DNA of 64,000 nucleotides, taken from Podarcis vaucheri. Its lineage: Eukaryota. Location of the stretch: NCBI GenBank assembly GCA_965113315.1, contig OZ220368.1. The stretch is one strand, 5' to 3'. The first letter of the stretch is position 1. Each line of letters begins with the position of its first letter. Shown one piece after another: positions 16,933 through 56,609 of this stretch. The translations under genes were made by a program, and so were the position numbers. The notes under the pieces were generated by a model. That model was not told the origin of the DNA, ran no database searches, and saw only the letters and a list, made by a program, of their open reading frames with translations.

Positions 16933-18936
16933 TTGTGTGAAGATGATTTCAATGTTGTTTGGGTTCAAATTTCTGTACATAAAAAAATGAAAAAATCCCA
17001 CGAACATTGCAGATTTGTTTTTCTCTCATAGATTTGCATTTAGGAGCATCATTTTGTATCAAATAAGTACTAAGTGTCCTGGGGTTCAGCTAAACAGTAC
17101 AAGATCAATTTCAATTTCTAATTGCACATATTTCAAACTTTGGGTCAAAAAGCCAGGCAGACTTTGTTGCTTGTTCGTTGTGTGTAAATATTAAGGTTTT
17201 GCACCGGCCACAAGATTTGGTTTTCATCCTGATTTGGCATTTATTTGGAAATTGGACTGCTTCATAGTTTGTCTGAGTCAGTTCTGGGTCCAAATTTGCT
17301 TTAGAAAAATGAAGCTTAAGTCGGCCTATCGTTAATCAAAAGTGGCTGAGGATTTTCTTCTTTTCTTTTGACAGAATTAGATAACATCTTTAGCCAAAGT
17401 AGCCCCTCCAGAGTGCATATAGCCTGCCAAATCAGACAAATTGGTCAAGGATTTATTGTGCTGGACACCTTTACAATTTGATATATTTTTTAAAAAAGAG
17501 AAACATCTATAGTTTTTTTTGGGGGGGGGAATTGGATGAAATCTACAGGTATGACAGACTCTTCTGAAGGAATGTATTCTGCTAAATTGCGTAAGGATCA
17601 CTCCAGTGGTTTTTCTGAAAGGGGAAACCATTTTACAGTTTGGGAAAGGTGCCCCTCCGGTAAGAAACCTGCCCAGTCGCAGACAAATAGTGCCAGGGGG
17701 CTTTGTGGTAGGCACATTTAAAGTTGATTTTTGTGGAGAACTATACATTGCAACCACTTGGTTTGGTGTGCAATAATTTTTAATGGAAATAGAAAAGGTG
17801 CTCCATGGAAAGTAACCTGCAAAATTTCAAGCAAACCGCTGTAGCAAAGAGGACAGAACAGAAAGGAGCAAGGTGATAAATTTGACATCCCTTCACCAAA
17901 GCACTGTGATTGGAGAGCCTTGGTATAATAATTCCCTCTGATTTCAAGTTAGGCGTGTCTGTCACAAAAGAGCTCTCCACATCCTAGTGGACCTTGAGGA
18001 AAATGCTTCAGTTTCTGGAGACACGATGCCATAGTTTAACATCTCAATCTCTGAAGTGTTTCATCAGTCCTCTGTTTAGGATACACTGAAGAGATGCCCC
18101 TTTGGCTCAGACAAGCCCAGAATCTTCCTGAAGCAGCCCCACTTTGGTTCTTCATTTGGGAATTACCTGAATTGTTTGCACACCCCTAATAAATACTCCG
18201 TCGTTACAGCATTTAGCCCTCTCTGACACAGGAAAAGAATCAGTTCCTAAACAATTATGAGCAGGCTGTTTGCAGTATCTCTTTGCAAGGGCTTTATTTT
18301 GCGAAGCAAAATAAACCGTATGACATCTTTATTTTACAACATCTGAAGATGAGAATTATCACTTCTTAGAACCATACATTCTGGCACCAGTGAGCAAGTT
18401 CAGGCTATTTTTATTTTCCTACCAATTTCTTTTTTCTGGGGGGGGGGGAATTAAAATTTTGTGTAAATATTACAATGGCTGAAATTAGCTGTGGTTGAAA
18501 CCTGGATGAAGCCAGCAGAGGGAGCTATGTGACAACTAATTTAAAGGAGTGACTCCTTATAATGTCCCAGTTAACCCAACATTGAAATACTTTGGGCTTT
18601 TCAATTACTAGTACCTACATGGAATCATAGTTGGAAGGTGCCATATAGTCCAAACTCTTGCAATTCATGAATCTTTCACCCAATGTAGAGGCTTATATGG
18701 ACAGAAATGCTCTTTCTAGAACTACAACAGTAAAGTGCTGAAGTAGTTAGCATTTTACCAGTTATTGCAGCTACTTGATTCTACCCCTCGGATTTCTGCT
18801 AATAATAATAATTAATAAAACAAACACCTATCTGTCTCGGTGTCACCCAGCAAAATATTAAAAACACAATGAAACATCAGCCATTAAACACTCCCCTGAA
18901 CAGGACTGCCTTTAGATGTCTTCTAAAAGTCAAATA

Positions 18937-19165
18937 CAGTGGTACCTCAGGTTAAGAACTTAATTTGTTCTAGAGGTCCGTTCTTAACCTGAAACTGTTC
19001 TTAACCTGAGGTACCACTTTAGCTAATGGAGCCTCCCGCTGCTGCTGCCGCACCACCACCGCACGATTTTTGTTCTCACCCTGAAGCAAAGTTCTTAACC
19101 CGAGGTACTATTTCTGGGTTAGCAGAGTGTGTAACCTGAAGCGTCTGTAACCCAAGGTACCACTG
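18937..19165. mobile_element. Tigger-like MITE, nested in an L2 3' relic (~18800-19210, - strand)
   Basis: CAGTGGTACCT...AGGTACCACTG termini with TA TSD; same family at 41425, 42967 and 43940. Confidence 0.85.
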
Positions 19166-20151
19166 TAGTTGTTTATCTGTTTGACATCTGATGGGAGGGC
19201 ATTCCACAGCTGTATCTCCAAACCAGAAAATTTGGACCTCAGCAAATTCAAGGCTGCACCTGAGTTCTGTTAGGTTCTAACTAAAATTCAGGCTGCAAAA
19301 TGAGCTTCAAACTGTTTCGCTGACCCTCCCCTTAGAAGGAGGTCGCCATCCAAAGACTGGGGAGAGATTCCCAGCCATCAGGAGACATAGGTGTTTTTGT
19401 TTTTCGTCCACTCAGTTGCCCAGTAATAGGCTTGCTCACTCACAGTAATTAAGCTGGTCAAAATTCACAGCACTAGTCTCTTAACTCAGTAATAAAAGGC
19501 TTACATAAGCTTGGCATCAGTGTGTCAAAAGATAAAGAGGCCGGAAAAGATAAGGCGTGTAATAAGCAGGAAGTCATCCAAACTGCCCTGACTCACTTTA
19601 TAAGCCTCTGACCTAATGGAGGTGAGACGCAGGAAGATGGGAGGCAAGAAAAGTGGTTCAGTGGCTGTCGCTTTTTGGACATGCAGCTGAATATTAGATC
19701 AGAAGTGCAGTAACAACAAGCAAATGATCAGATGTGTAGTAACATTTACTCAAATCCTGGGTAGTAGGCATAATGAGGAGTGGTAGCTGGTTGCATTAAA
19801 TCTAAATAGGTGTGTTTGTGGGGTGGTGGTGACTAGTGAGATGGGTTCTTCTGTTCCTCTTCCAGGCTGGAAGCCACAGCACTGCAGCTTCATCCTGCAC
19901 TTAACATGGCAGCACAAAAAGGCCAAGAGACCTTCTGTGTGAAGATTCTTCCCCATGCCAGCCCTTGCATTTTCCAGCAGCTTGATGCTAACGTGTGGCA
20001 TGGTATGCCACTCACGCATGCACCCAGAGCTTGTTACGCCAATAGTCTGGGACAGGAACTGTCTTGGGTTTCAAAATAGCATTAAAGAAAGGTGGAAGAG
20101 TCAAGGATACAGAGTTTAAGGGTGATTAGCAGTTCATACCCAGCTACTGGA

Positions 20152-20288
20152 CCAGTTATTCCCAACCTTTGGCCCTCCAGATGTTTTGGACTACAATTCC
20201 CATCATCCCTGACCACTGGTCCTGTTAGCTAGGGATCATGGGAGTTGTAGGCCAAAACATCTGGAAGGTTGCAGACTGGGGATGCCTG
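20152..20288. mobile_element. Palindromic hAT-like MITE (GGACTACAACTCCC family)
   Basis: Inverted arms ccagatgttttggactacaattccc / gggagttgtaggccaaaacatctgg; related copies near 13880-13980, 25235-25372, 39055-39180, 48410-48628 and 51440-51555. Confidence 0.65.
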
Positions 20289-21760: not shown

Positions 21761-24700
21761 GAACCACTGTAAAACTGCCTCCTATACCCATCTCACTAGG
21801 GCTTATCGACACCTCTGTTTGTCCCATTGCTTTTGCCTGGGGGAACCCGATCTTTAGCGCAGAATCGGAATAAACAGCAATCAGATTTTCTGTGGATTGC
21901 TGTTTGATCCAATTTAGCACTAAAGAGTGAGTTTCCCAGGGGGAAGTGGTGGGGCAAAGACAAAATCACTTGGATTTGTGTCTAGAAAGTGCAGGTCAAG
22001 CAGAAAACCGCTTGGACCTGTGCTTTCTAGGAACAGGACAAGTAGAAGTGTGGACTAGCCCTTAGCTGGCTCATAAGGATACCAGGAGCAATGGCATCAA
22101 ATATCACTAAGATACTGAGTAAGAATAACAGTGCGACACTCACCCTCACTTTCTTCCAATAAAGCCCAACCATCCGGCCAGGGCTGATTCAGTTCCATAG
22201 TCAGGCCTGAACCCAAATTGGAGCGGGCCAAGCTACTCTTAGATGAAACATCATTTGCCTTTGTCTCACCATAGCCCTCTCAATCAGCTTTCCTCCAGTA
22301 TCGGTATTTATGATCAGGCAGTTCTCAGAAACCAAGAGGTCCAGGCAGTGCTTTTTCAGGAGTACCTGGGTTTCAAGATGACCAGGGCTACTATCTCCTG
22401 CAAAATTGCATTGACCATCCCCTAGATCCCCCTGGCCACCCCCCTTGGGAAGATTTGATAAACTAAGAGGGGCAAGAATCAAGGGAACATGTTCTTCGCT
22501 CCGTCATCATGTCATCTGACCCCAGCAGCTGAAACTGGTCCCACGATGGTTCTGTAGACCTTGCACTGGACATCTCACTGAAGATGTAAATGTGGCATCA
22601 GGATTGCTATGAAGGTGAGTAACTTTACCCTGAATGCCTTATAAACAGATCACAGCGGGCTTCTGAAGGGTGTAAAACTCCCCGGAGTAGATGTTAACAG
22701 GCCCTGGACATTGAGAGCACTTGGTGTTTTATATGGTAAATTTGTGGAAGAAATAAGACTGATCTCTCCACCCTTTTCCATCTGTTTTTTTCTGCTGGCG
22801 ATGTACTGTTGGTATATTCTAGACTTTGACTTGTTTGCCTCCATATGTACTTCAGAAATAATAATACTCAACATTTGCATAATGCTTTCAAGGTACTTCA
22901 TAAGCATTATGAACCTGCAATCGGTGAAACAAACTTGAAAAGTAAGTCATTATAATTATTTCCCCATACTACAGGTGAGGGAATTGCTGATGACGGAGTG
23001 AGTGGCCTTCTAAAGGCCACCTATTGACTTCCTCAAACCGGGGACTTCCTGATGGCAGTCAGTCATTTAATTACCATGCTATAGTGCCAAAGTGGCAGAA
23101 TAGACAAGTACCTCCTCATATTCCTCCTATATATCCGGTGGGATATATGCTTGGTGGATGGGGGTGCCATGCAAAATAGAAAACCAGCACTGTGGTCGAA
23201 TTTTCCTCCATGACATGCTAGGTTTCTGTTTGCAGGGAGGGCTTTTTTATTTTATTTTAAAGAAGACAGAGGACCTTTTGCTTGCAGTGGTGCAGTCAGT
23301 TCTGCCACCTTAGCAGTTTGTCACTTTATCCTGCTATGTGAGTACACCAGGCCTGTGTCCAGGGGCTCATTTTGATGGCAATAAATCTCTGATGAAGTAT
23401 GAAATGATCCTGTTGTCCTGCTTCTCAGCTCTCTGGCTGCTGTTTCCGGTTACTCCTCTTTTTTTACTGTCACTCCCTAGACACCTTTCATCAGCAGAAG
23501 AACCCTAATGACTTTGCCTGGTATTCCCCTAGCATTTCCTGGCCCCACCCCTATTTTCTACCTACTCTCCAGAGAATGTTGGTATCTGTGATGTAAAAAC
23601 ACACCCAGACGGATCATAGAAAGAGTCGTCTCCTGCGGAAAGATTTTAGTGGCTCCAGCAACTATGAGTAGGGCAGGTGGTGCCCTCCATACATTTTGGA
23701 GGGCATATTCACTGGGGTTGATGAGAATTGTGGGCCAAATTTCTGGAGAGCACACTGTTGGGGAAGATAAATGGAAGGATAGTCAAGAGCTGGGTTTGGA
23801 TATATTTCGTCCCAAACCAATATATGCCAGAGTCAGTTCTATGAATTAACTGGATATGTACTTTACCCCGAGCCTTTAAAAAAGAAAGAGCAGAGTCTTT
23901 CGTTAGCGATTTCTCAGTGCACAACAGAAAGCATGTTAGAGCAACCTTTAGCACACATCCACCACCTCTGCAGTGGTTGTGTAAACTTGGTCTTGGGTGA
24001 GTTGTTGTGACAGTGGTAAGCGGAAGACAGGTTTTCTTACAGTGCAAAAACCCCTTAGAAATCAGAATCCCATTGAGTTCAGTGGGTGTTCATTCCCAAA
24101 TAAGTGGCATTGCAGCCTTAAAGAGTGCATGTGTGTGTTTAATTTGGTGTACATGCACTATTTTATTCTAGAATCAATGGAGCCTGGGTACTTTTTTCCC
24201 TATGCAGTCCACACACAGTCTAGATCTACTGCATATTTCTGCCCCCTAGAAAGGGGCTTCCTGAGAAACTGGTTTCTTTCAAAAAAAATAAAAATAAAAG
24301 CTCATTCCAGGTTGGTTCTAGTCCCCCACCCCTAACATATGGGCTTTGAATTTTGCATTAGGCTTAAAAGGGGGCATATGTGTATACAAATACATGCAGA
24401 CAGGGCTTCTCTGAGCAAGTGGGAACCTTGACTAGCCAGCCCTGTTGGAAGTTCAGTAGGGACCAATCCAAAGGCAGGAGCTTCTCCAACTTTGTGTGGA
24501 GCAGTTTGGGAGGACCCTGAAGAACTGAATGGGAGGGAACTGCTTAAAACCAAAGTGCATGTCTGGAGGTCCATATGCAGCTCTTTGAATCATGCCCCAC
24601 ATCTGAGATCCCAGCAGTCAAAGGGTGGCAGTTTTCATTGTGTTTTTTGACCACTTTGAGATCCGTAGCCCCCACCCAAGCTGCTGTCTCCATGGTACCT

Positions 24701-29139: not shown

Positions 29140-29475
29140 CACTCCCCCAACAAGCAAGTGGGAGCAATGAACCTTGGTTTAGTGTTATGTCCAAACCAGG
29201 GATTGTGGTTTGTTTTGTTCCAAACAAACCATGACCATGATTTGAAGCCAAGGTTTGCTATTTACTCACCAATTGCAGTTTATACATTTTGTTCAGAATT
29301 TTATTTTGTTCAGAATTTTGTTCAGAATTTTATTTTTGTTTTAAAATATATTCTTTGTATGCATCTCTGGATAAGATCAAATAACACCCCTGATACACAA
29401 AACAAACCACAATCCCTGGATGGGACATAACATTAAACCAAGGATTGTGCTCCTGCTTACTAGCAGGGAGGACTA
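29140..29475. mobile_element. Old MITE with long inverted arms
   Basis: ccttggtttagtgttatgtcc..ccagggattgtggtttgtttt versus aaacaaaccacaatccctgg..ggacataacattaaaccaagg; related AAACCATGGTT-type repeats near 33900, 45400, 59350 and 60500. Confidence 0.6.
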
Positions 29476-37382: not shown

Positions 37383-37441
37383 CTGACAAGCACATTTAAA
37401 AACCTGGTTCTACACATGCCACCGAATATGGCAAATTTTGT

Positions 37442-37497
37442 GCATTGCAGGGGGTTGGACTGGATGACCCTCGGGATCCCTTCGTTACGATTCTATG
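37442..37497 (+). mobile_element. CR1 3'-terminal stub
   Basis: GGGGTTGGACTGGATGACC...GATTCTATG, typical of a CR1 3' end. Confidence 0.6.
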
Positions 37498-37559
37498 CAT
37501 TCCATCTCTCCGGACTGCCGGTAGGTAGGTGCAGAATCACATCTCTGAATCTCCTCCAC

Positions 37560-38330
37560 GCTCAACTCGCTGACAGTAAACACAGCGGCTGGAGGCGGCC
37601 TTCTCTCGGTCGCGAAACAGGGAAACTCCGCCACCGATTGGCTCCCTCCCCAGCCCGGAAGGAAAGGCAAGCGGCCGCCCCAGCCGTAGAGCGCAGGGGG
37701 AAGAGGCCTGGTGCACGGGGAGGGCGAAGGGCGCGCCTCTCCGCGGCCAAAGGGTCCTAGAGGTCGCCATTGCGTCTTTACGCGCGGCGCCCCTTCTTCT
37801 CTCCAAGGGTCGGGCGGGCGTGGAGTAAGGGGAAAGCGCTGGTATCTCAAGCCCCCCCCCTCCATTACGTCTTCACTTGCTGGAGGGATCGCCAGCCAAC
37901 GGAGCAGGGGATCTTGCTCCTCCCCTCCTCCGCGCCTCGTCTCTGACTTGAGCTTTTGGCAACCTCGCCTCCTCTTCCTGGAACCAGTTTGTTCTGTCGC
38001 GTCTGGTAGGTGACGGGAGTGGCCATGGCGGGGGAAAGGCAACCAGCCTTGTGGACGCACAGCTCCCGCTCCTCTGCAGGCGCGCGTTATAAGGAGGCGC
38101 CCCGCTTGCTCTCTATTGGCTCCGGTTTCCCTGCTTCTGCGTCTTCTTCGGAAGGCGTTTCCCCTTCCTGCCCTCGCAGCGTCTCCTGTTGACGTTGGCC
38201 AAAGAGGCTCAGGTGGCGCAGGGAGGCGGCGGGTCGGTTGCCCCGCGGCTCTTCTGCGCCAAGGGAAACCTGGGTTCTCTCGCATGGCTTGAAGCGCAGG
38301 AGAGAGGGTGTGCGTGTACGTTGCATCGTC
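37560..38330 (+). promoter_or_regulatory. OMA1: CpG island / OMA1 promoter and probable non-coding first exon
   Basis: Only CpG-dense block in the window; reverse CCAAT boxes (~37637, ~38116), YY1-like CGCCAT/ATGGCG, ETS CGGAAG; candidate donors near 38006 and 38213; 2.5 kb upstream of the first coding exon. Confidence 0.8.
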
Positions 38331-38433
38331 TCTCTGGTCCCTCAGGCCTCCACTTTGTGACTGCTTCTGTGGGACAAAGCCACCCAAGTCACAAGGCGAA
38401 CCCCCTGATATGTACTCATATAGCAGATAATAT

Positions 38434-38619
38434 GTTCTTGGTATGAGCTTTCGTGTGCATGCACACTTCTTCAGATACACAGTATATATATTGTGTATCT
38501 GAAGAAGTGTGCATGCACACGAAAGCTCATACCAAGAACTAACTTAGTTGGTCTTTAAGGTGCTACTGGAAGGAATTTTTTTATTTTGACTATGGCAGAC
38601 CAACACGGCTACCTATCTG
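38434..38619 (+). mobile_element. Penelope-like element remnant with inverted partial terminal repeat
   Basis: CTGAAGAAG..GAAAGCTCATACC..TTAGTTGGTCTTTAAGGTGCTACTGG..CAGACCAACACGGCTAC; 48-bp inverted duplicate; flanking near-duplicate TAGCAGATAATATG/TAGCAAATAATATG. Confidence 0.75.
38495..38532 (+). ncRNA. Minimal type-I hammerhead ribozyme motif
   Basis: GUAU-CUGAAGA-A-GUGUGC/GCACAC-GAAA-GC-UC^-AUAC; identical copy on the - strand at 38441-38478. Confidence 0.6.
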
Positions 38620-39219
38620 TAGCAAATAATATGGTTTAGGATTCCCACCTAATCCAGCTGTTCATTGCTGGTTTTAATTAGTAATGGAAATTTGACTTGA
38701 AATTTAAGTGAGAAATGTCTGTTCTATGAGGGAAAGAAGAATGGCTCTACTTCCGGGAAAGAACACCTGCCTGCTCCTCATTTGGCTTGCCCCGGTGCCC
38801 CTTTTTTGACATTTGGATAGTCAGCCTTAGTTAAAGCCTCACCTATTTCGTTGTGTCATTCTCTCCATGCAATTGTCTCTGGGTTTGAATATGAGGGCCA
38901 GATCTTCCCTCACAGGGAGTTGGCTCCTGATATTGAAGGTAGTACAGTACATGAACTTTCATGAGGGTGTTTTCCATGGGACACAAGTGCATTGTTAATG
39001 AATCTGTCCTGGACAGGATAGTGCCCAAGCTTTTGACTTCTCAGGCTAGATTAACCTGGTGCCCTGTAGATTTGGACTGTAACTCCCATCAGTCCCAGCT
39101 ACCACAGCTGTGCTGGCAGTGTTGCGGATGGGAATTGTAGTCTAGAACTTATGGAAGGCACCAGGTTGGAGGAGGCTGGGCTGGATGGTAAACAAAGCAG
39201 GGGGTTAGCTGCTAGTATA

Positions 39220-39410
39220 CTACTTCGTGCTTATAAAGCACTTCAGAGAGCTCAGGGCATTTTACTTGGAATCTCTCAATAATCCTTACAACAACTCTGC
39301 CAGGTAGATCAATATTACTATCTCCATCTTGCAGGTGGAGAATAGGGGGTGAAGATGAGAGATTGTGGCTTGCATAAAGACACCTAGTGATTTAGTGATG
39401 GAGGTGATAT
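39220..39410 (-). mobile_element. Old CORE/MIR-like SINE
   Basis: aatccttacaacaactctgccaggtag..tattactatctccatcttgcaggtggagaa, a MIR-like core. Confidence 0.45.
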
Positions 39411-40795
39411 TTGGAAACTTTGAAAGGGAAGCCAAATCAGAGAGTTAAGGGAAGGGGTTGACTGTTGGCCTGAGGGAAGGAGTTTGCTGCTGACACTGAA
39501 CAGAGAACAAGGTAAAAAGGGTGGACAGAGGGCCATGGGCTACGGATGCCAAGGAAGTTATGTGTGTGCTGAATTTCATGTGGTGGGTTGTATTCAACTA
39601 TCTTTTATTCAGAGTAGGCATCTTTAAATTAATGGCTGCAATTAACTTAGGTCCAGTAATTTAAGTGAGTACAAGTTAATTACTCTGAGTAAACGGTAGT
39701 TGACGGCAACCCAGTGATTTGAACTAATCAACCAGAGATATGGTCAGCTAAAGATCAGAAGTGGGACCTGCATTTACTGCAATGGGATATTACACCCAAA
39801 TCAACTTTTTCAACTCTGCAATCACTTCACTGTATCTCAAATTTTGGTTGGAAACCAAGGTGTCACATATGGAAAATAAGTGCCAGTGGCTGTGGTCAGG
39901 ATTCTTACATTGGTTCCAACCCTTGATGTTCTTATAGGGACCACATATTCTCTCCCACTCTGTGTGTAAATGGGGTTTACATGCAATTCATGCAAGTTTA
40001 AAAAATGGGGTGGATGTATTATAGAAGTCCTACTCATACAGGTGTGTCCTGTTGGGAGAAAAGAGTGCAAGGCTCACTCCCACACATTGTCGTGTACTAA
40101 CTGCTTACCTGAACAATGTGTGGTGTAGCTCATGGATGTAAAGATTCTGCGTGACCCATTGGGTATGTTTGGACTATTTTTCTGGGCTTCCCAAAATGTG
40201 GTTCGGCCCAAAGTGGGGGAAGTCTGTCTTAATAGTTTGTGAACTTGGGAAAAAGCAATGGGATAGGGAGAACTGTACTTGTTTTGACCCTCTTTTCCTC
40301 TTCAGTGTGGATTTTTTTCATGTTTAATAGTGTGTCTGTTCAGCACGTCATTTCTGGCTTTTACTAAGCCTGAGTTCCCTATTATATCTGGAGAATTTTG
40401 GCTTATTGTCAGATATTATCCTGGTTGCTAACTAACTGACAGATTTACACAGTTTTGGACCCACAACTCTGGCTTTTTGTAAATCAGAAATGAAGCAGAA
40501 CAGTGGAAAAGTGTGTAGGTATTTGGCCCTGGATCATGCTCCTAATTTAATAAACCATAGTTTTTGAAACCTGGAACAATTATCTGAACTAGGCCATTGT
40601 CCCCAACAACAGCTCCCAGCACTTTGGGAGAACCACGCTGAGGTTTTCCCAGTACCCAGTACTGAGTTCTAGTGAATACACACTCTTAAAGAGCATAGTG
40701 TCTTATAGCGTTATCATTTGCTATTGCATCATTTAAAAATATATACTCTTGATTTACATTTCTAGGTGTAACACGTGAGAGAGAGAGGGAGAGTG

Positions 40796-41268
40796 ATGGC
40801 TGCTCTTAGTGGCTCAAGAAACTGTCTTTTAACTAGATTTACATCTTTGGCCTGTTGGGGAAAGTGCATTAATCCTTACAAGTTTTCCAGTGAAGCATTG
40901 AACAGACACCAGCATCAAGTGACTAAGTGCCAATCATGGAACAAAAGTAAAAACAGAAGGTGCTACTTAATGACTGAAAGTTCCAACACCTACAGTAACC
41001 TCATTAATAAAAGTCAAGTGCGGCTTTTGAACCCTAAGAATGCAGGAATTTTCAACGTTGCACACAGCTGTTCTAGGAGGCCTTGTATTCTCTCTGAGCA
41101 AAGGGCAAGAGGACTTGCTTTTCAAAAATCTCGACACTTGACTGGTTCTCAGAATGTCCAGTTTCACAGGCCTTTTCACAGATCTTCAGCACTGAAGGCG
41201 GCTCCCGTTCCAATCTTGTGGATTCTATTGAAGCCAGTTCAGAAACTATTTGCTGTCATCCTTGGGAG
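40796..41268 (+). CDS. OMA1: OMA1 first coding exon (mitochondrial presequence to PVPILWILLKPVQKLFAVILGR); acceptor at 40765/40766
   Basis: Arg/Ser-rich presequence; conserved LKPVQKLFA.I.GR; gtaaac donor. Confidence 0.9.
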
Positions 41269-41424
41269 GTAAACATTAATATTGCTCTGCTACACACTAT
41301 AGCAGTATAGAGTATACTACATTGTTGCAATGTAAATTTAGATGCAAGCTTAATAGGATACTTTGCAAACTTCACATGAGACTGTCTGGCATGCTCATAA
41401 TGTTGGAAAGGAGCCTTGCAAATA

Positions 41425-41652
41425 CAGTGGTACCTCAGGTTAAGTACTTAATTCATTCTGGAGGTCCGTACTTAACCTGAAACTGTTCTTAACCTGAAGC
41501 ACCACTTTAGCTAATGGGGCCTCCTGCTGGAGCCCGATTTTTGTTTTCATCCTGAAGCAAAGTTCTTAACCTGAAGCACTATTTCTGGGTTAGCGGAGTC
41601 TGTAACCTGAAGCGTATGTAACCTGAAGCGTATGTAACCTGAGGTACCACTG
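41425..41652. mobile_element. Tigger-like MITE
   Basis: CAGTGGTACCTCAGGTTA / TAACCTGAGGTACCACTG TIRs, TA TSD. Confidence 0.88.
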
Positions 41653-42966
41653 TAGATGGTGAAAGCTCAGTTTTTGTGAGAATGACTGCTGATTTTGTGT
41701 CTCTGCTCCCCTCCTCCTCTCACCTGTTTTAAAGCCTGGTGAGGTAGCTTGGAAGAACATGTGTAACTTGGATAAAAATGGGTAAAGTACATTTCTATGC
41801 TGTTTCCCAAACTGTTTCCCCAAATATGTGAATATTCTACCTCTATCCTCCAGCAAAGGACGCTAGAATAGCATTGTGGTACTTTCTGGTCCCTCGCCCG
41901 CCCTCCCAGTACTGAGGGATAATGTCTCCTGGCTCTAGGCACTAGGTTGATAGTACAGTACCACTTTTGATTCTTGTAAAGAGGATGGGGCAGGGGCTGT
42001 AGGAAGGAAAGAGTGAGTATTGTCCATTCTCAGCCTGGAACCATGATAAATCGCACCTCTGTTTCTGTGCTTTCCCATGAAAGCAGCCCCTGCTTTGGGG
42101 ATATGTTTTGGTTTTTATTGATTTTCATTTACCTTAGCCAAGTTTTAATTACTTGAAAGGCCAACTGCTTCCTTGATTTGAAATCTGCGAAGCTCTGAAA
42201 CACCTCTGAAGTGGAGTATGCAACTCTGTTCATCACTTTGGTGGGCAGGTGGGAATGAAGCAGAAGAAATAAACATGCTTTAAATATGCTTAGTTTGAAA
42301 TGGCATCAACTTGGTGGCTTAGGTGCAGAGTGTTCTTCCTGTGCTTTTAGTTCTATACTGTCTGAGCAGTGCCTTTTTCTCCTAAATGCCACCAGCAGTT
42401 AGGCACTTTATTATCCTTTAAAAACATTTCCTCTTTATAATAAAATAAAATTTAGAATGTTTTTAACTGTGTTGCCAAGACACACCTTGTTGTGTAATTT
42501 CCACCAAGGAAGTAGTTGCGTCTCTCAAGTTTTTAAGAGTGACTCAGCGCAGTGAGTTTCGTTCCTAGCTTGCAGACCAATCGGTTAACAAAATTTGGAT
42601 CTTGGTAACGCACTTCTAATATTAGGAGCACATCCTCACCTCTAGTCACCTTTTAAAAGGTAATTTGGCTACTAATCTCCAATCTAGATATCATGTGCAC
42701 ATCAGAGGGCTGCTGCAGCACTGTCCCCATGCATGTACTATCCTGCTGAGGAAGCCACACCTTTGCAAACTTCCTGGGAAAGGAGTGGAAGGTTCTCAGA
42801 ATCTGGGGCACTGCATATATAGGCCTGCGTCGCACTTGGATTTATGAGCGGTGGTAAGGGCATGGGTCTGATGCTTCGCCTTGTAAGCTGTTTTTCTGGA
42901 TTAGAGGTTGAGTAATTTGGGCTTAAGAATAGGTCAATCACAAAGCATGCATCTAGTTTTCTAGTA

Positions 42967-43178
42967 CAGTGGTACCTCTGGTTATGAACTTAATTGGTTC
43001 TTAACCTAAGGTACCACTTTAGCTAATGGGGCCTCCCGCTGCCGCCGCGCTGCCAGTGCACGATTTCTCTTCTCATCCTGGGGCAAAGTACTTAACCCGA
43101 GGTACTACTTCCGTGTTAGCGGAGTCTGTAACCTGAAGTGTTTGTAACCCAAGGTGTTTGTAACCCGAGGTACCACTG
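42967..43178. mobile_element. Tigger-like MITE
   Basis: Same TIR family, TA TSD. Confidence 0.85.
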
Positions 43179-43939
43179 TATATATATAGTTCGTGATCCA
43201 GAAAGTTGAGGCTTGCTGTAGTGCAGTATAATTTTTGACTCTGAAGAGCTGACTCCTTTACTTCCCTATGCCACGTAACAAATCGCTTTTGAAAATTATT
43301 CTCGGTTTTGGAAGTCCTCAGGTTTGCCATGTGGCATAGAGGGAGGACTTCTGTTTGAGGAAAAGAAGTATGAAACCCCCCTTGGAGCTGCTTTTACAGT
43401 GCTCTGGATTCTGGCCATAAACTTTACATATTCACTATGCAGGCCAAAACAGCAAATGATGCTCCACTTGTGCTTTTGCAATATGGATGTTCTGTTGCTG
43501 CTCAAGGAACCATCTATTAAATTTAAATTGTATATACAAGTTGGACCCTGTGGAAAACCATCGTGGTATATGTGGTAAATCCCATCGCTTATTAAACCTT
43601 TTCTTTGGTATTAAATGAACACATTTTTCTTACTGTAAATAAGGTGTCTCAGTGTTTTGAAACTTGCTTCTTTTTCTTATTATTCTCCAGAGCAGAATGT
43701 TGTTTTTTAAAATAGAATATAATAGTTAATGGTTTCTCAGCCTTTAAATATGCATTAGATTTTTGTTTTGGCTTTCCTTTTCCATTCTCAAAGGCTTCAT
43801 TGAAGCCAGATTTTAGATCTGTAGAAATTACTTTTTTTAAAAAAAAAAGTTTAGAAGGAGAATACTTTAGATTATTGAAACTGCTGTTTGGTTCCTCAAA
43901 TTTCAATTGAGCAATCTCCCACCTTTTTTTTTTGGTATA

Positions 43940-47301: not shown

Positions 47302-47995
47302 GTAAGTAAAAATCGAACACCAAGAGATGTAATAATTCGGAAAGAAGCTACTGACAGCGCATTCCTGTTGTCCTTGGGAGGACGTCCCAGAGGCTGAAGG
47401 ATTTTGTGCCTCTCCCTCTTGGCGGTGAGGGTGGGGGGGTCATAGCTCAGAGGCAGAGCATCTTCCTTGCTCTTCCAGATTCAATCCCTGGCTTCTGCAG
47501 GGGGGGGGGGGCTGGGAATGTCACCAAATCTGAATCCCTCAGGAGGAGCCTCTGCCAGTCAGTGCAGACAGTATTGGGCTTGACTTGGTACCGCTGTCCT
47601 TCCTCTGCCATTATTGCTTTCACAGTAGAGAGGGCAAAAAGGTGTTGGGGAGAAGAGGAGCTTCTGGGATCCAGCCTCCCCCAGTCCACATACACGGGTC
47701 GAGAGAAAACATGTCCTGAAGTTTGCGTGCTGATTTTCTCTCCTTTTCTGACCAACGTGCAGGGAAGTCTCCCTTCCTCACCTCGCCCCCCAAAAGAAGT
47801 GTGCTGACAAAAAGGAGGAATAAAGAAGAAACACAACTTCTCTTTTTCCCTCCATTCTGTCTCTCCCCCCCCTCCCAATTTTTCTGCTCTGCTGGTGCTG
47901 GCCTGGCCAAGCTGTGGGTTCACCCCCACCCCCACTTTGGATTGCTCTATGAAACAATTTGTTTGCAGTATTATTTTTCCTCTCTTTGCCTGCAG

Positions 47996-48103
47996 AATGG
48001 ACAACTGTTTGTTTTCACTGGTATGCTATCTGCTGTGTCAGATATCAATGAGCTGTCTTTCATTCTGGGACATGAACTTGCTCATGCTGTTCTGGGACAC
48101 GGG
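47996..48103 (+). CDS. OMA1: OMA1 exon with HExxH zinc motif ([12 protein letters not shown])
   Basis: HELAH at 48071-48085. Confidence 0.96.
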
Positions 48104-48508
48104 GTATGTATCCTGTTTTAAAAAGTGACGTTGCCAAAGCCCTCTGAAACTAAACACATGGTCATAGGTGACCAATGTGGACCAATGTGGAGACCACCAT
48201 ATTTGACTGGAACTACCCAGCGATGCTCACAGCCTGCCTCTTAGGGCTAATAAGCTTTGCTCCAAACTCTGCATCTGTGATGTTAATTGAAGTCAGAAGT
48301 TAGGGGTGTGTCGTACAACTGAATAGCTCTTTATAGGCCTTCCTTACCCAGAGTTGGTGCTTTCCAGCATCCAGTACTTCTTCTGCCAGCATTGTGGCTT
48401 CATAAAGTGTTTCTCCAAGTTGGATCTCCAGTTGGACTACAACTCCCATAATCCTTAGCTAGCAGGATGTGATGGGAGTTGTAGTCCAGCAACAGCTGGT
48501 GAACCAAG

Positions 48509-50535: not shown

Positions 50536-51235
50536 GAATCATAGAATAGAATCATAGAATCATAGAGTTGGAAGAGACCACAAGGGCCATCGAGTCCAAC
50601 CCCCTGCCAAGCAGGAAACAGCATCAGAGCACTCCTGACATATGGTTGTCAAGCCTCTGCTTAAAGACCTCCAAAGTAGGAGACTCCACCACACTCCTTG
50701 GCAGCAAATTCCACTGTCGAACAGCTCTTACTGTCAGGAAGTTCTTCCTAATGTTTAGGTGGAATCTTCTTTCTTGTAGTTTGGATCCATTGCTCCGTGT
50801 CCGCTTCTCTGGAGCAGCAGAAAACAACCTTTCTCCCTCCTCTATATGACATCCTTTTATATATTTGAACATGGCTATCATATCACCCCTTAACCTCCTC
50901 TTCTCCAGGCCTAAACATGCCCAGCTCCCTTAGCCGTTCCTCATAAGGCATTGTTTCCAGGCCTTTGACCATTTTGGTTGCTCTCCTCTGGACACGTTCC
51001 AGTTTGTCAGTGTCCTTCTTGAACTGTGGTGCCCAGAACTGGACACAGTACTCCAGGTGAGGTCTGACCAGAGCAGAATACAGTGGCACTATTACTTCCC
51101 TTGATCTAGATGCTATACTCCTATTGATGCAGCCCAGGATTGCATTGGCTTTTTTAGCTGCCGCGTCACACTGTTGGCTCATGTCAAGTTTGTGGTCAAC
51201 CAAGACTCCTAGATCCTTTTCACATGTACTGCTCT
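50536..51235 (-). mobile_element. CR1 LINE, 5'-truncated, young
   Basis: ORF2 C-terminal peptides ([19 protein letters not shown]; RKNFLTVRAVRQWN) with one frameshift near 50910; (ATTCTATG)n-type tail; TSD CAAGATTA (50528-50535 and 51236-51243). Confidence 0.95.
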
Positions 51236-52565
51236 CAAGATTAATACATGATTAATACAAGGTTTGAAAAACTGCATCCTCAGAGTACTGAATTAAAAAG
51301 ATCCCAATTCCACTATTGTCAGTGACACTCTGGAAGGGGAGTAAGTTTATGAAACCTGTGGTCCATGCAAAATATGAGGTATTTGAAATGCAGTTGGAAA
51401 TATGGTATCAATTCAAATGGACTTTGGTCCATTACAGAACTAGGGCAAGGGCCCCTGTGGCCCTGCAGGTGGTTCCTGACCACTGGGTATGCAGACTGGG
51501 GCTGATGAGAGTTGGAGTCTATCCACATCTGTAGGTCCCATGTGCTCCCCATGCCTGTAGGGTTAAAACGAAACGAAATTTGGCAGTATTGTCAAATATC
51601 AGGCAGAAAAATCCAGTTTGTTTGGTTTTTTTAAAAGGAACAAACGTGGAAACTGAATAAACTCTTATTACAGCTGAGGAGAGTCTTGAGGCTGTAATAA
51701 GGCATGTCCATCTTTCATAGCCACAATTTACTTTCAGTTGGGCTACTGCACAGAAAACCTGCTATCCAAGTTTTTTTGCTGTCATAATTGCAGTGTGAAG
51801 CCTTACAATGTGTGGGTAATTTCCCATGACATTTTGGGAACTGGGCGGCAGGTAGATTGGAGCTGGGCAGGGCTTTCCTTGGGGCGAGACAGTGCCTCTT
51901 CTACAGTCATCCTAAGTCGTTACCCTCCTCCCTCATCACCTCTCTCTCTGACTTCAATCTCTGTGCTCTGCTGTCACCAACAGTTGTTGGTTTACACTGT
52001 ATTATAATTCATGGATATTTGCATTACATTTTGCATTGAAAAGCTTTAATATGAGGGGGAAAGCACTCTGCATATGCTCCGAGGTGCTTTTTTCCTTAAG
52101 ACTTCTGCCATGGATTTAAAGGTGAACACACATATTGCGGTGCCTCAGTGTTTTATGTAACCACCTGTAAAATGGGACCAATGACAGCTAAATGATCTAA
52201 ATGCAATAAAGCACATAGATGTTTCTTTATCTGTATCTGATGTGTCTGCAGCATACCTCACTGCTTTTATTATCAAAACACATCTGGCTGCATGCATTTT
52301 AGTTTCCTTTTTTCACCTGTGGCTAACTCCGGCCTCTTGTCATTATTTGCCAGGCCACGCAAATACTCCCCACTTAGCTGCACCCACTACTTCAGTTTAT
52401 AAAACACTGGAGCACATGCTTATCATTCTGTCTACTGTAGACCAGAGAGAGAGAAAAAAGTGAAGAAGCACCGCTGGCATGCATGGCTTTTATTGGAACC
52501 AAACTCTAGAACGCAGCAGGTCTCAGCCAGACTGCTAATGCAACCGCTGATTTAGCTGCTTCCTA

Positions 52566-55726: not shown

Positions 55727-55876
55727 GCTTGTATGGATGTAAGAGCAAGTTCTGTATTCTGGCAGAAAATGGAGCTCGCTGAGACTCTTACAGGGCAACC
55801 AAGAGTGCCAGAATGGTTTTCTACACACCCCTCCCATGAGAATCGAGCTGAGCATTTGGACAGACTTATTCCAGAG
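55727..55876 (+). CDS. OMA1: OMA1 exon ([15 protein letters not shown]...[22 protein letters not shown]); last exon not found in window
   Basis: STHP M48 motif; AG/GT borders; 150 nt. Confidence 0.95.
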
Positions 55877-56609
55877 GTGAGGTGGTTTGGGAGTTTTGGT
55901 GTCTTTAAACCGAGTATCGTTTTTCACATGTCTGTCCCATCCTTCTTTGAGTTGCCAAGGGCAGTGTGTATATATAGGATTGATTTCGCACACTCACACA
56001 CTCCAAATCTAATAGTCATTATGAGTTGCTTTCTTAGCTGCCAATTTTCTAAGACAAAGATACCGTCGAAGTACTTGCTGTATATTGCTTAGATTTACTG
56101 AAATCTATCTTGGTCCCCCCAAGCTTCAGCTTTCTCGCAGGAACAAATGTGCCTCTCTCTTCAGCAACTCCTAACCTGTTCCCGTTTCCTATTTATCATT
56201 TATACATTTGCAAACTGCTTTGTAATCTTTGCCCTCAAATGATCCTGTCATTGTTCGTATTTCAGTCTAGGGCCATACAATAATCCTATGGCAAAGGTGA
56301 GATTTGAAACCAGACCTCTTAGTCCAGGCTAAATGTTACCTAGTATTAGAGCACAAGTTTGTCTGTAAGTAATCTTAATGGAGTGCTTTAATGTGGCCTC
56401 AATCTCAATGCTTTTGGATTTTTAGCAGTGGACGCTAGTCCAGGCGATTATGAACAAGCTGTTCCTCTAAGCTTCTGTCAAATCTGCCATTTCATAGGAT
56501 TTGAGCTCAAGTGCAACTGCTTGTCTCTTGGGCCCTAACTCACAGGCACTAACTAAGAACTGTTTTGCATGCAATGTTAAACCATATTTAAACAGAAACT
56601 AATGTAGAA

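Follow-up and report, generated by a model that had tools for sequence, protein, structure and literature searches.

The OMA1 locus

The window, that is the whole 64-kb stretch of DNA analysed, carries on its plus strand a JAB-domain gene and a single-exon EpCAM/Trop-2 gene upstream of exons that match Peptidase_M48 in Pfam (47720–48118, E = 1.6e-8; 55727–56089, E = 0.0011, below the cut-off). In other vertebrates the gene order is MYSM1, TACSTD2, OMA1, the last encoding a mitochondrial stress protease. Four of the 23 public runs listed were compared with the window over 37400–41300, all of them as assembled contigs: X1, which matches the window; X4, which has the same species label and comes from another study; X3, from organism B; and X15, from organism G. 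X1, X4 and X3 are DNA-type runs, while X15 is RNA-like, its RNA status being a guess.

Record 10 of X15 joins 37708–38007 to 40785–41269, consistent with splicing from a donor at 38006 to an acceptor ahead of 40766. Since this presumed RNA contig, from a relative, shows 38005 spliced to 40766, the palindromic element that is the subject of this work is placed in OMA1 intron 1. It lies 429 bp past the exon-1 donor and at least 726 bp past the start, just beyond the edge of a CpG-rich stretch (37501–38400; GC 0.61–0.68, CpG observed/expected 0.64–0.95). A preliminary description of the sequence had set the palindrome beside the OMA1 promoter, which these positions correct. Its suggestion that the palindrome forms part of OMA1 pre-mRNA is borne out as far as the relative's presumed RNA contig goes: transcription starts upstream, with exon 1 at 37708–38005 in the relative, and not downstream of 38620. 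The features of the locus are collected in Table 1.

Two observations concern the neighbourhood of the CpG-rich stretch. A 352-codon stop-to-stop frame on the minus strand (37488–38543) crosses both this stretch and the palindrome; it has no Pfam match and is likely a by-product of high GC. Just upstream, 37441–37483 is a short fragment of a different repeat that is very abundant too, with hundreds of loose ends in all four runs.

Table 1. Coordinates of the features at the OMA1 insertion, in window positions
Feature	Position	Strand	Remarks and basis
OMA1 exon 1, non-coding, at least this long	37708..38005	+	X15 record 10; donor GTAGGT at 38006
Left target-site copy	38421..38434	+	14-bp reading; exact 8-bp core 38427–38434
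Inverted partial copy of the element	38434..38481	-	Mirror of 38492–38539
Minimal hammerhead, antisense in OMA1 pre-mRNA	38441..38478	-	C3 38474, N17 38445; descriptor
TA-rich spacer, head-to-head junction	38482..38491		Self-complementary apart from one G/T pair
Direct 5′-truncated copy of the family's terminal region (pseudo-LTR-like)	38492..38621	+	Depth; 93 X1 contigs leaving after 38621
Minimal type-I hammerhead	38495..38532	+	C3 38499, N17 = C38528; descriptor and fold
Plus hammerhead, stem I	38495–98/38529–32	+	GUAU/AUAC, 4 bp (7 with bulge)
Plus hammerhead, core CUGAAGA	38499–38505	+	Followed by extra unpaired A38506
Plus hammerhead, stem II	38507–11/38516–20	+	GUGUG/CACAC, 5 bp and 4-nt loop
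Plus hammerhead, GAAA	38521–24	+	Palindromic AGCU 38524–27, C17 38528
Possible optional 30–40-bp tail	38589..38621	+	Ends of other copies' pieces
Right target-site copy	38620..38633	+	14-bp reading; exact 8-bp core 38626–38633
OMA1 exon 2, first coding exon, ATG 40796	40766..41269	+	X15 contig, sequence

A young insertion with empty sites in other samples

The contigs of X1 show no difference from the window over 37454–38460 and a single one over 38597–41300 (records 1 and 8). Both outer junctions between insertion and flank are present in these contigs, which rules out an assembly artefact at those junctions; the centre of the palindrome is spanned by none of the X1 pieces listed. The insertion is 185–191 bp long, with its right end at 38619–38625, and the palindrome is only its front part. 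The unit is thus larger than the 106 bp proposed in the preliminary description.

The borders can be read in two ways, as 191 bp with an exact 8-bp duplication (8/8) or as 185 bp with a 14-bp duplication containing one mismatch (13/14). The 14-bp reading accounts better for 38622–38625, because 93 X1 contigs depart from the window after 38621. The 14-bp near-duplication reported earlier is therefore real, but it frames about 185 bp rather than the 106-bp palindrome.

Empty sites were found in both of the other DNA-type runs. Record 22 of X4 is a single 3789-nt contig that passes from 37454–38426 directly to 38626, with 199 bp absent, and in record 15 of X3 position 38410 is followed directly by 38620, so that 10 bases are absent besides the element. 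These sites confirm a short target-site duplication, as expected of Penelope elements. Record 11 of X15 matches up to 38434 and continues with 7 letters that are not those of the element. Differences from the window amount to 38 letters in about 3.6 kb for X4 and to 45 for X3, which makes X4 a fairly distant lineage and the insertion either polymorphic or lineage-specific. The insertion is young; neither a second sample with the same species label nor a related organism carries it. X1 appears to be homozygous for it, as suggested by flank contigs that pass into the element unbroken at the target site. Separately, the 10 bp just left of the insertion (38411–38420) are present in X1 and X4 and skipped in X3, and X15 has 9 gaps there, indicating a distinct small indel.

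The palindrome and its hammerhead motifs

The two arms of the palindrome, 38434–38481 and 38492–38539, are reverse complements at 48/48 positions around a 10-nt TA-rich spacer, just as initially described; measured up to the centre, 52/53 positions are paired (98%, 53-nt arms). Among perfect inverted repeats with a gap below 60 nt it is the longest in the 64-kb window. Its folding z-score is −17, none of 200 shuffled sequences folding equally well, and its computed folding energy is −95.4 kcal/mol; a second prediction gave −93.9 kcal/mol for the hairpin as RNA and −60.2 kcal/mol as DNA. Comparison with Rfam microRNA families gave 42 matches, none of which reaches its gathering threshold (the best 75.1 against 101 bits). 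Membership of a known microRNA precursor family was rejected on this ground, the matches being of a generic long-hairpin type and all below gathering scores.

A minimal-hammerhead descriptor scan of the 64 kb, with 100 shuffles as control, returned exactly two hits, one in each arm, as against a shuffled mean of 0.08 (maximum 2), or 0.01 (maximum 1) when stems of this length are demanded. A hammerhead is thus present on each strand, as had been noted, although the second is an automatic consequence of the palindrome. The Rfam hammerhead models gave no hit, even at E 10 with the direct copy alone.

The plus-strand motif combines the core CUGANGA, GAAA and NUH with stems I and II. An unpaired base (A38506) lies between positions 9 and 10.1, G38507 and C38520 supply the G10.1–C11.1 pair, and a short stem I of 4 bp is accompanied by a longer stem II of 5 bp and by a palindromic AGCU at 15.2/16.2 in place of stem III. 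The anatomy is as first described (CUGAAGA/GAAA core, GUAU/AUAC stem I, stem II and AGCU), and the descriptor likewise puts N17 at 38528, in agreement with predicted cleavage after C38528 on the plus strand.

In OMA1 sense, the stretch 38539–38598 contains a branch-point-like CTAAC (38539), a T-rich tract (38576–38587) and a CAG (38596–38598). This is a possible cryptic acceptor, with three AG between, and may be the element's own splice site.

Predicted folding of the ribozyme

Fold prediction without the upstream arm pairs stems I and II of the plus-strand hammerhead with probabilities of 0.85–0.99. With the upstream arm included these fall to 0.0, and the penalty for forming the ribozyme is 69 kcal/mol at 37 °C and 75 kcal/mol at 28 °C. 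The earlier idea that the upstream antisense arm would sequester the ribozyme is upheld by these predictions, and the hammerhead in the OMA1 intron is predicted to be inactive, buried in the hairpin.

Dimer cleavage is reportedly a subject of work by Lunse et al. Since one transcript holds one hammerhead, the two motifs cannot dimerize in cis. For pairing in trans, the computed energy of the double-hammerhead dimer is −16.7 kcal/mol, against −19.2 kcal/mol for two monomers and −36.2 kcal/mol for an inactive dimer paired through stem II. The favoured dimer fold is thus computed to be an inactive duplex formed by the palindromic stem II.

A high-copy repeat family with variable head-to-head junctions

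The element belongs to an abundant family. Summed contig depth over 38448–38578 is about 76,000–83,000 times that of the single-copy flank in X1, X4 and X3, and still 2,400–2,700 times after division by 31 for overlapping contigs; these values give an order of magnitude only and not a copy number. In each of the three DNA-type runs the family numbers thousands of copies or more, and its sequence is also present in the RNA-like X15. A pattern search of the 64-kb window produced two matches, both inside the palindrome, and the three other nhmmer hits have E values of 4.6–7.2; there is no second copy in the window. A pattern scan for further copies gave no match in viral contigs, metagenomes or prokaryote genomes, as expected for a vertebrate repeat. 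Listings of the accessible literature yielded no account of this family or of the OMA1 insertion, and the family may already carry a name in Repbase or Dfam.

The two arms take up the first 106 bp and are followed by about 82 bp of family sequence that has no pairing partner. Among other copies, pieces end at 38574–38589 or at 38614–38621, although some of the ends at 38588 are alignment breaks in the T run that partly continue as element. The inverted arm extends no further than the counterpart of 38539, which leaves it 50–80 bp short of the 3′ ends of the family. The hammerhead (38495–38532) sits in the terminal repeat near the 3′ end of the family at about 38621, as it does in Penelope elements. 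The element has no attached reverse transcriptase or endonuclease frame.

Other copies of the family also have head-to-head junctions. All of the best 15 of the 186 joints reported link left arm to right arm, each at its own position, and none is the symmetric junction of the OMA1 copy. Hence both the OMA1 copy and these 15 joints display the 5′ truncation and adjacent head-to-head inverted copy known from Penelope elements. Eight of the best 15 fall at 38476–38479 to 38512–38517; there, 6 of 7 bases agree between the 3′ strand of stem II and the 5′ strand of stem I taken in antisense. Microhomology of at least two bases occurs at 9 of the best 15 of 186 joints as against 18% expected (p about 3e-4); this is a hint only, these joints being the best supported, non-independent and mostly with intervening sequence marked 'not known'. 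A direction of copying drawn from the junction offsets (13/15 positive) was rejected, since a palindromic query with one-sided extension biases the placement of short contigs.

Four joints reach about 85 (X1), 113 (X4), and 42 and 38 (X1) times single-copy depth. Certain junctions have thus recurred or been propagated, which fits movement of a whole unit as well as a hot spot. Record 16 of X3 covers 38435–38544 with 13 other letters and 3 gaps, which shows a similar whole palindrome elsewhere. In record 7 of X1 (38529–38614) the first base of one other copy is 38529, immediately 3′ of the predicted cleavage site, and 39 unlike letters precede it; this is a single case among the pieces shown and could be chance.

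Comparison with known hammerheads and Penelope-like elements

Minimal hammerheads are defined by an unpaired base before stem II, a G10.1–C11.1 pair, a stem I of 4–5 bp and a palindromic 15.2/16.2 (Cervera and De la Pena 2014, PMC4209133, in the accessible part). All of these published marks are present in the OMA1 motif, so that the preliminary assignment to a Penelope-type minimal type-I hammerhead with palindromic stem III, inside an inverted partial repeat, stands. As in the minimal hammerheads of metazoan Penelope-like elements (PLEs), the motif is of type I, has CUGANGA followed by one unpaired base, a 4-bp stem I and no real stem III; copies of those motifs, too, are mostly single and truncated (PMC4209133). 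The same text states that metazoan monomers show no cleavage and dimers low cleavage in vitro, and that opposite-strand hammerhead pairs lie 100–700 bp apart. In contrast, only about 25 bp (C3 to C3) separate the OMA1 motifs, which belong to one perfect palindrome, and a further palindrome of 14 nt is formed by stem II together with its loop.

By eye, the motif of Chrysemys picta bellii drawn in Fig. S3 of PMC4209133 is identical at 29/34 positions outside loop II. Stem I reads GCAU/AUGC in the turtle and GUAU/AUAC here, and stem II GUGGG/CCCAC and GUGUG/CACAC, respectively, which makes two compensatory pairs; the fifth difference is U17 in the turtle against C17. Stem II has the same 5 bp as in the turtle, as opposed to 7–8 bp in Schistosoma. 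In that figure the turtle motif has no PLE asterisk (ORF link). The resemblance to the turtle motif, together with the repeat content of the window, makes a lizard the likely source of the DNA.

Inverted 5′-truncated copies and junction palindromes are typical of PLEs (Arkhipova et al. 2013, PMC3846280; Craig et al. 2021, PMC8557442). The former reports junction palindromes of 18 and 38 bp and target-site duplications of 8–10 bp, and proposes self-priming. The OMA1 insertion resembles these PLE insertions in its 5′ head-to-head copy, junction palindrome, short target-site duplication, AT-rich target and lack of a poly(A) end. Unlike them, it is stump-sized and without an ORF, and its inverted arm comprises 48 bp and stops short of the 3′ end, whereas full inverted pLTRs are described in PMC3846280.

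A reptile counterpart is PAc, a Poseidon element of Anolis carolinensis, which acts on AT-rich DNA by nicking both strands and extending them, and whose hammerhead depends on the element's protein (Frangieh et al. 2024, PMC11167929, from the part available). By its description PAc shares with the present family its reptile host, a hammerhead in a pLTR and AT-rich targets. It has two 3′ ends that define a tail, to which the candidate tail of the family would correspond, and its hammerhead overlaps the start of an ORF that the OMA1 copy lacks. Polymorphic Penelope insertions are common in Anolis, with 16,208 listed (PMC7561263, accessible part).

Animal non-LTR retrozymes, as presented in the visible part of a preprint (bioRxiv 10.64898/2026.07.22.740005), are likewise short, non-coding and PLE-related, with type-I hammerheads. 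They consist of head-to-tail tandem units with at least two hammerheads per strand, whereas the OMA1 copy is head-to-head, and the whole window contains one hammerhead on each strand and no tandem units. The OMA1 copy could still be a solo monomer of a retrozyme family. It lacks the terminal inverted repeats at both ends that mark a MITE, its arms occupying the first 106 bp.

Origin of the palindrome and alternative readings

Very probably, a high-copy repeat, likely a Penelope-like terminal repeat, gave rise to the 185–191-bp insertion in OMA1 intron 1, and the palindrome makes up its head-to-head 5′ end, with a hammerhead that is predicted to be inactive. The tie to an autonomous Penelope-like element is likely, judged by motif and anatomy only. 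The GIY-YIG endonuclease of such a partner would have nicked the AT-rich target, and its reverse transcriptase would have copied only the last 130 or so RNA bases. The new strand may then have folded back at the TA run and copied itself for 48–53 bases before it joined the target, which would give rise to the mirror arm. A parent element would use its hammerhead, dimerized through AGCU, to cleave tandem transcripts. In OMA1 RNA the perfect antisense precedes the hammerhead, and the predicted 48–51-bp hairpin would leave with the intron. The insertion is most likely a near-neutral, inert passenger.

The mirror arm might instead have been inherited from a master copy, the family being a short non-autonomous Penelope-derived unit, SINE- or MITE-like, that is copied whole. 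The junctions at 38–113 times single-copy depth in X1 and X4 and the similar palindrome in X3 record 16 point this way, and the TA spacer could be a relic of the master's target. We nevertheless regard whole-unit copying as improbable: the best 15 of 186 joints differ from one another and from the symmetric junction of the OMA1 copy, the inverted arms do not bound the insertion on both sides, as those of a MITE would, and perfect hairpins would be expected to impede copying. Less probable still is an action of the insertion on OMA1 level or splicing, through an edited or diced hairpin, the cryptic acceptor at 38576–38598 or a cruciform beside the CpG island. Its site right after the CpG-rich stretch and 429 bp inside intron 1, the stability of the hairpin (−93.9 kcal/mol as RNA, −60.2 kcal/mol as DNA) and the probable homozygosity of X1 would favour such an effect, but the insertion is absent from X4 and X3 and hence not conserved, the OMA1 copy is one among thousands, and intronic hairpins are typically removed together with the intron.

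That the motif acts as a ribozyme on OMA1 pre-mRNA, cleaving it at C38528 once paired in trans with hammerheads from other transcribed copies, is scarcely credible, for all that the core is intact, stems I and II are predicted to form at 0.85–0.99 without the upstream arm and family sequence occurs in the RNA-like X15. The antisense arm is transcribed first and would cost a predicted 69 kcal/mol to open. Moreover, published monomers remained uncleaved and dimers were weak in vitro (PMC4209133), and the Anolis motif required the element's protein (PMC11167929). The striking traits of the locus have all been described before for the class, to which it adds one new copy.

A broader and tentative proposal, which we would put well below even chances, is that a very active Penelope-type family in this reptile lineage turns back at a hot spot within its own hammerhead. 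Its young insertions, thousands in number and in many cases lineage-specific, would then preserve a base-by-base record of fold-back self-priming and would render their own ribozymes silent. If this were true, the catalogue of junctions would directly test how head-to-head copies arise, and the genome would hold a standing supply of perfect 50-bp intronic hairpins, the OMA1 copy included. For the way in which PLEs copy themselves head-to-head, self-priming has been proposed (PMC3846280), and nicking and extension of two strands has been shown (PMC11167929). Being young, present in thousands of copies and rich in distinct junctions, the family is good material for this question. The single locus carries little weight by itself; its presence or absence in OMA1 intron 1 is a marker by which X1 can be told from X4 and X3. 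A host effect on OMA1, which nothing indicates, would be a small lineage-limited curiosity.

Other repeats in the window

Three elements (18931–19171, 41423–41654 and 42965–43180) have terminal inverted repeats of 24–25 bp beginning TACAGTGGTACC, with 166–193 bp between the arms, and we take them to be Tc1/mariner-type MITEs; the first has extra internal repeats. Another MITE family is probably represented by 29172–29443, whose inverted arms of 47 bp are 94% complementary and 178 bp apart. On the minus strand, two frames at 50627–51251 in an OMA1 intron, one of which was scanned and has no Pfam match, presumably are the decayed end of a CR1-type LINE reverse transcriptase. Imperfect, older palindromes lie at 20153–20288 (58-bp arms, 78%), which in our view resembles a common squamate repeat, and at 21840–21937 (43-bp arms, 77%).
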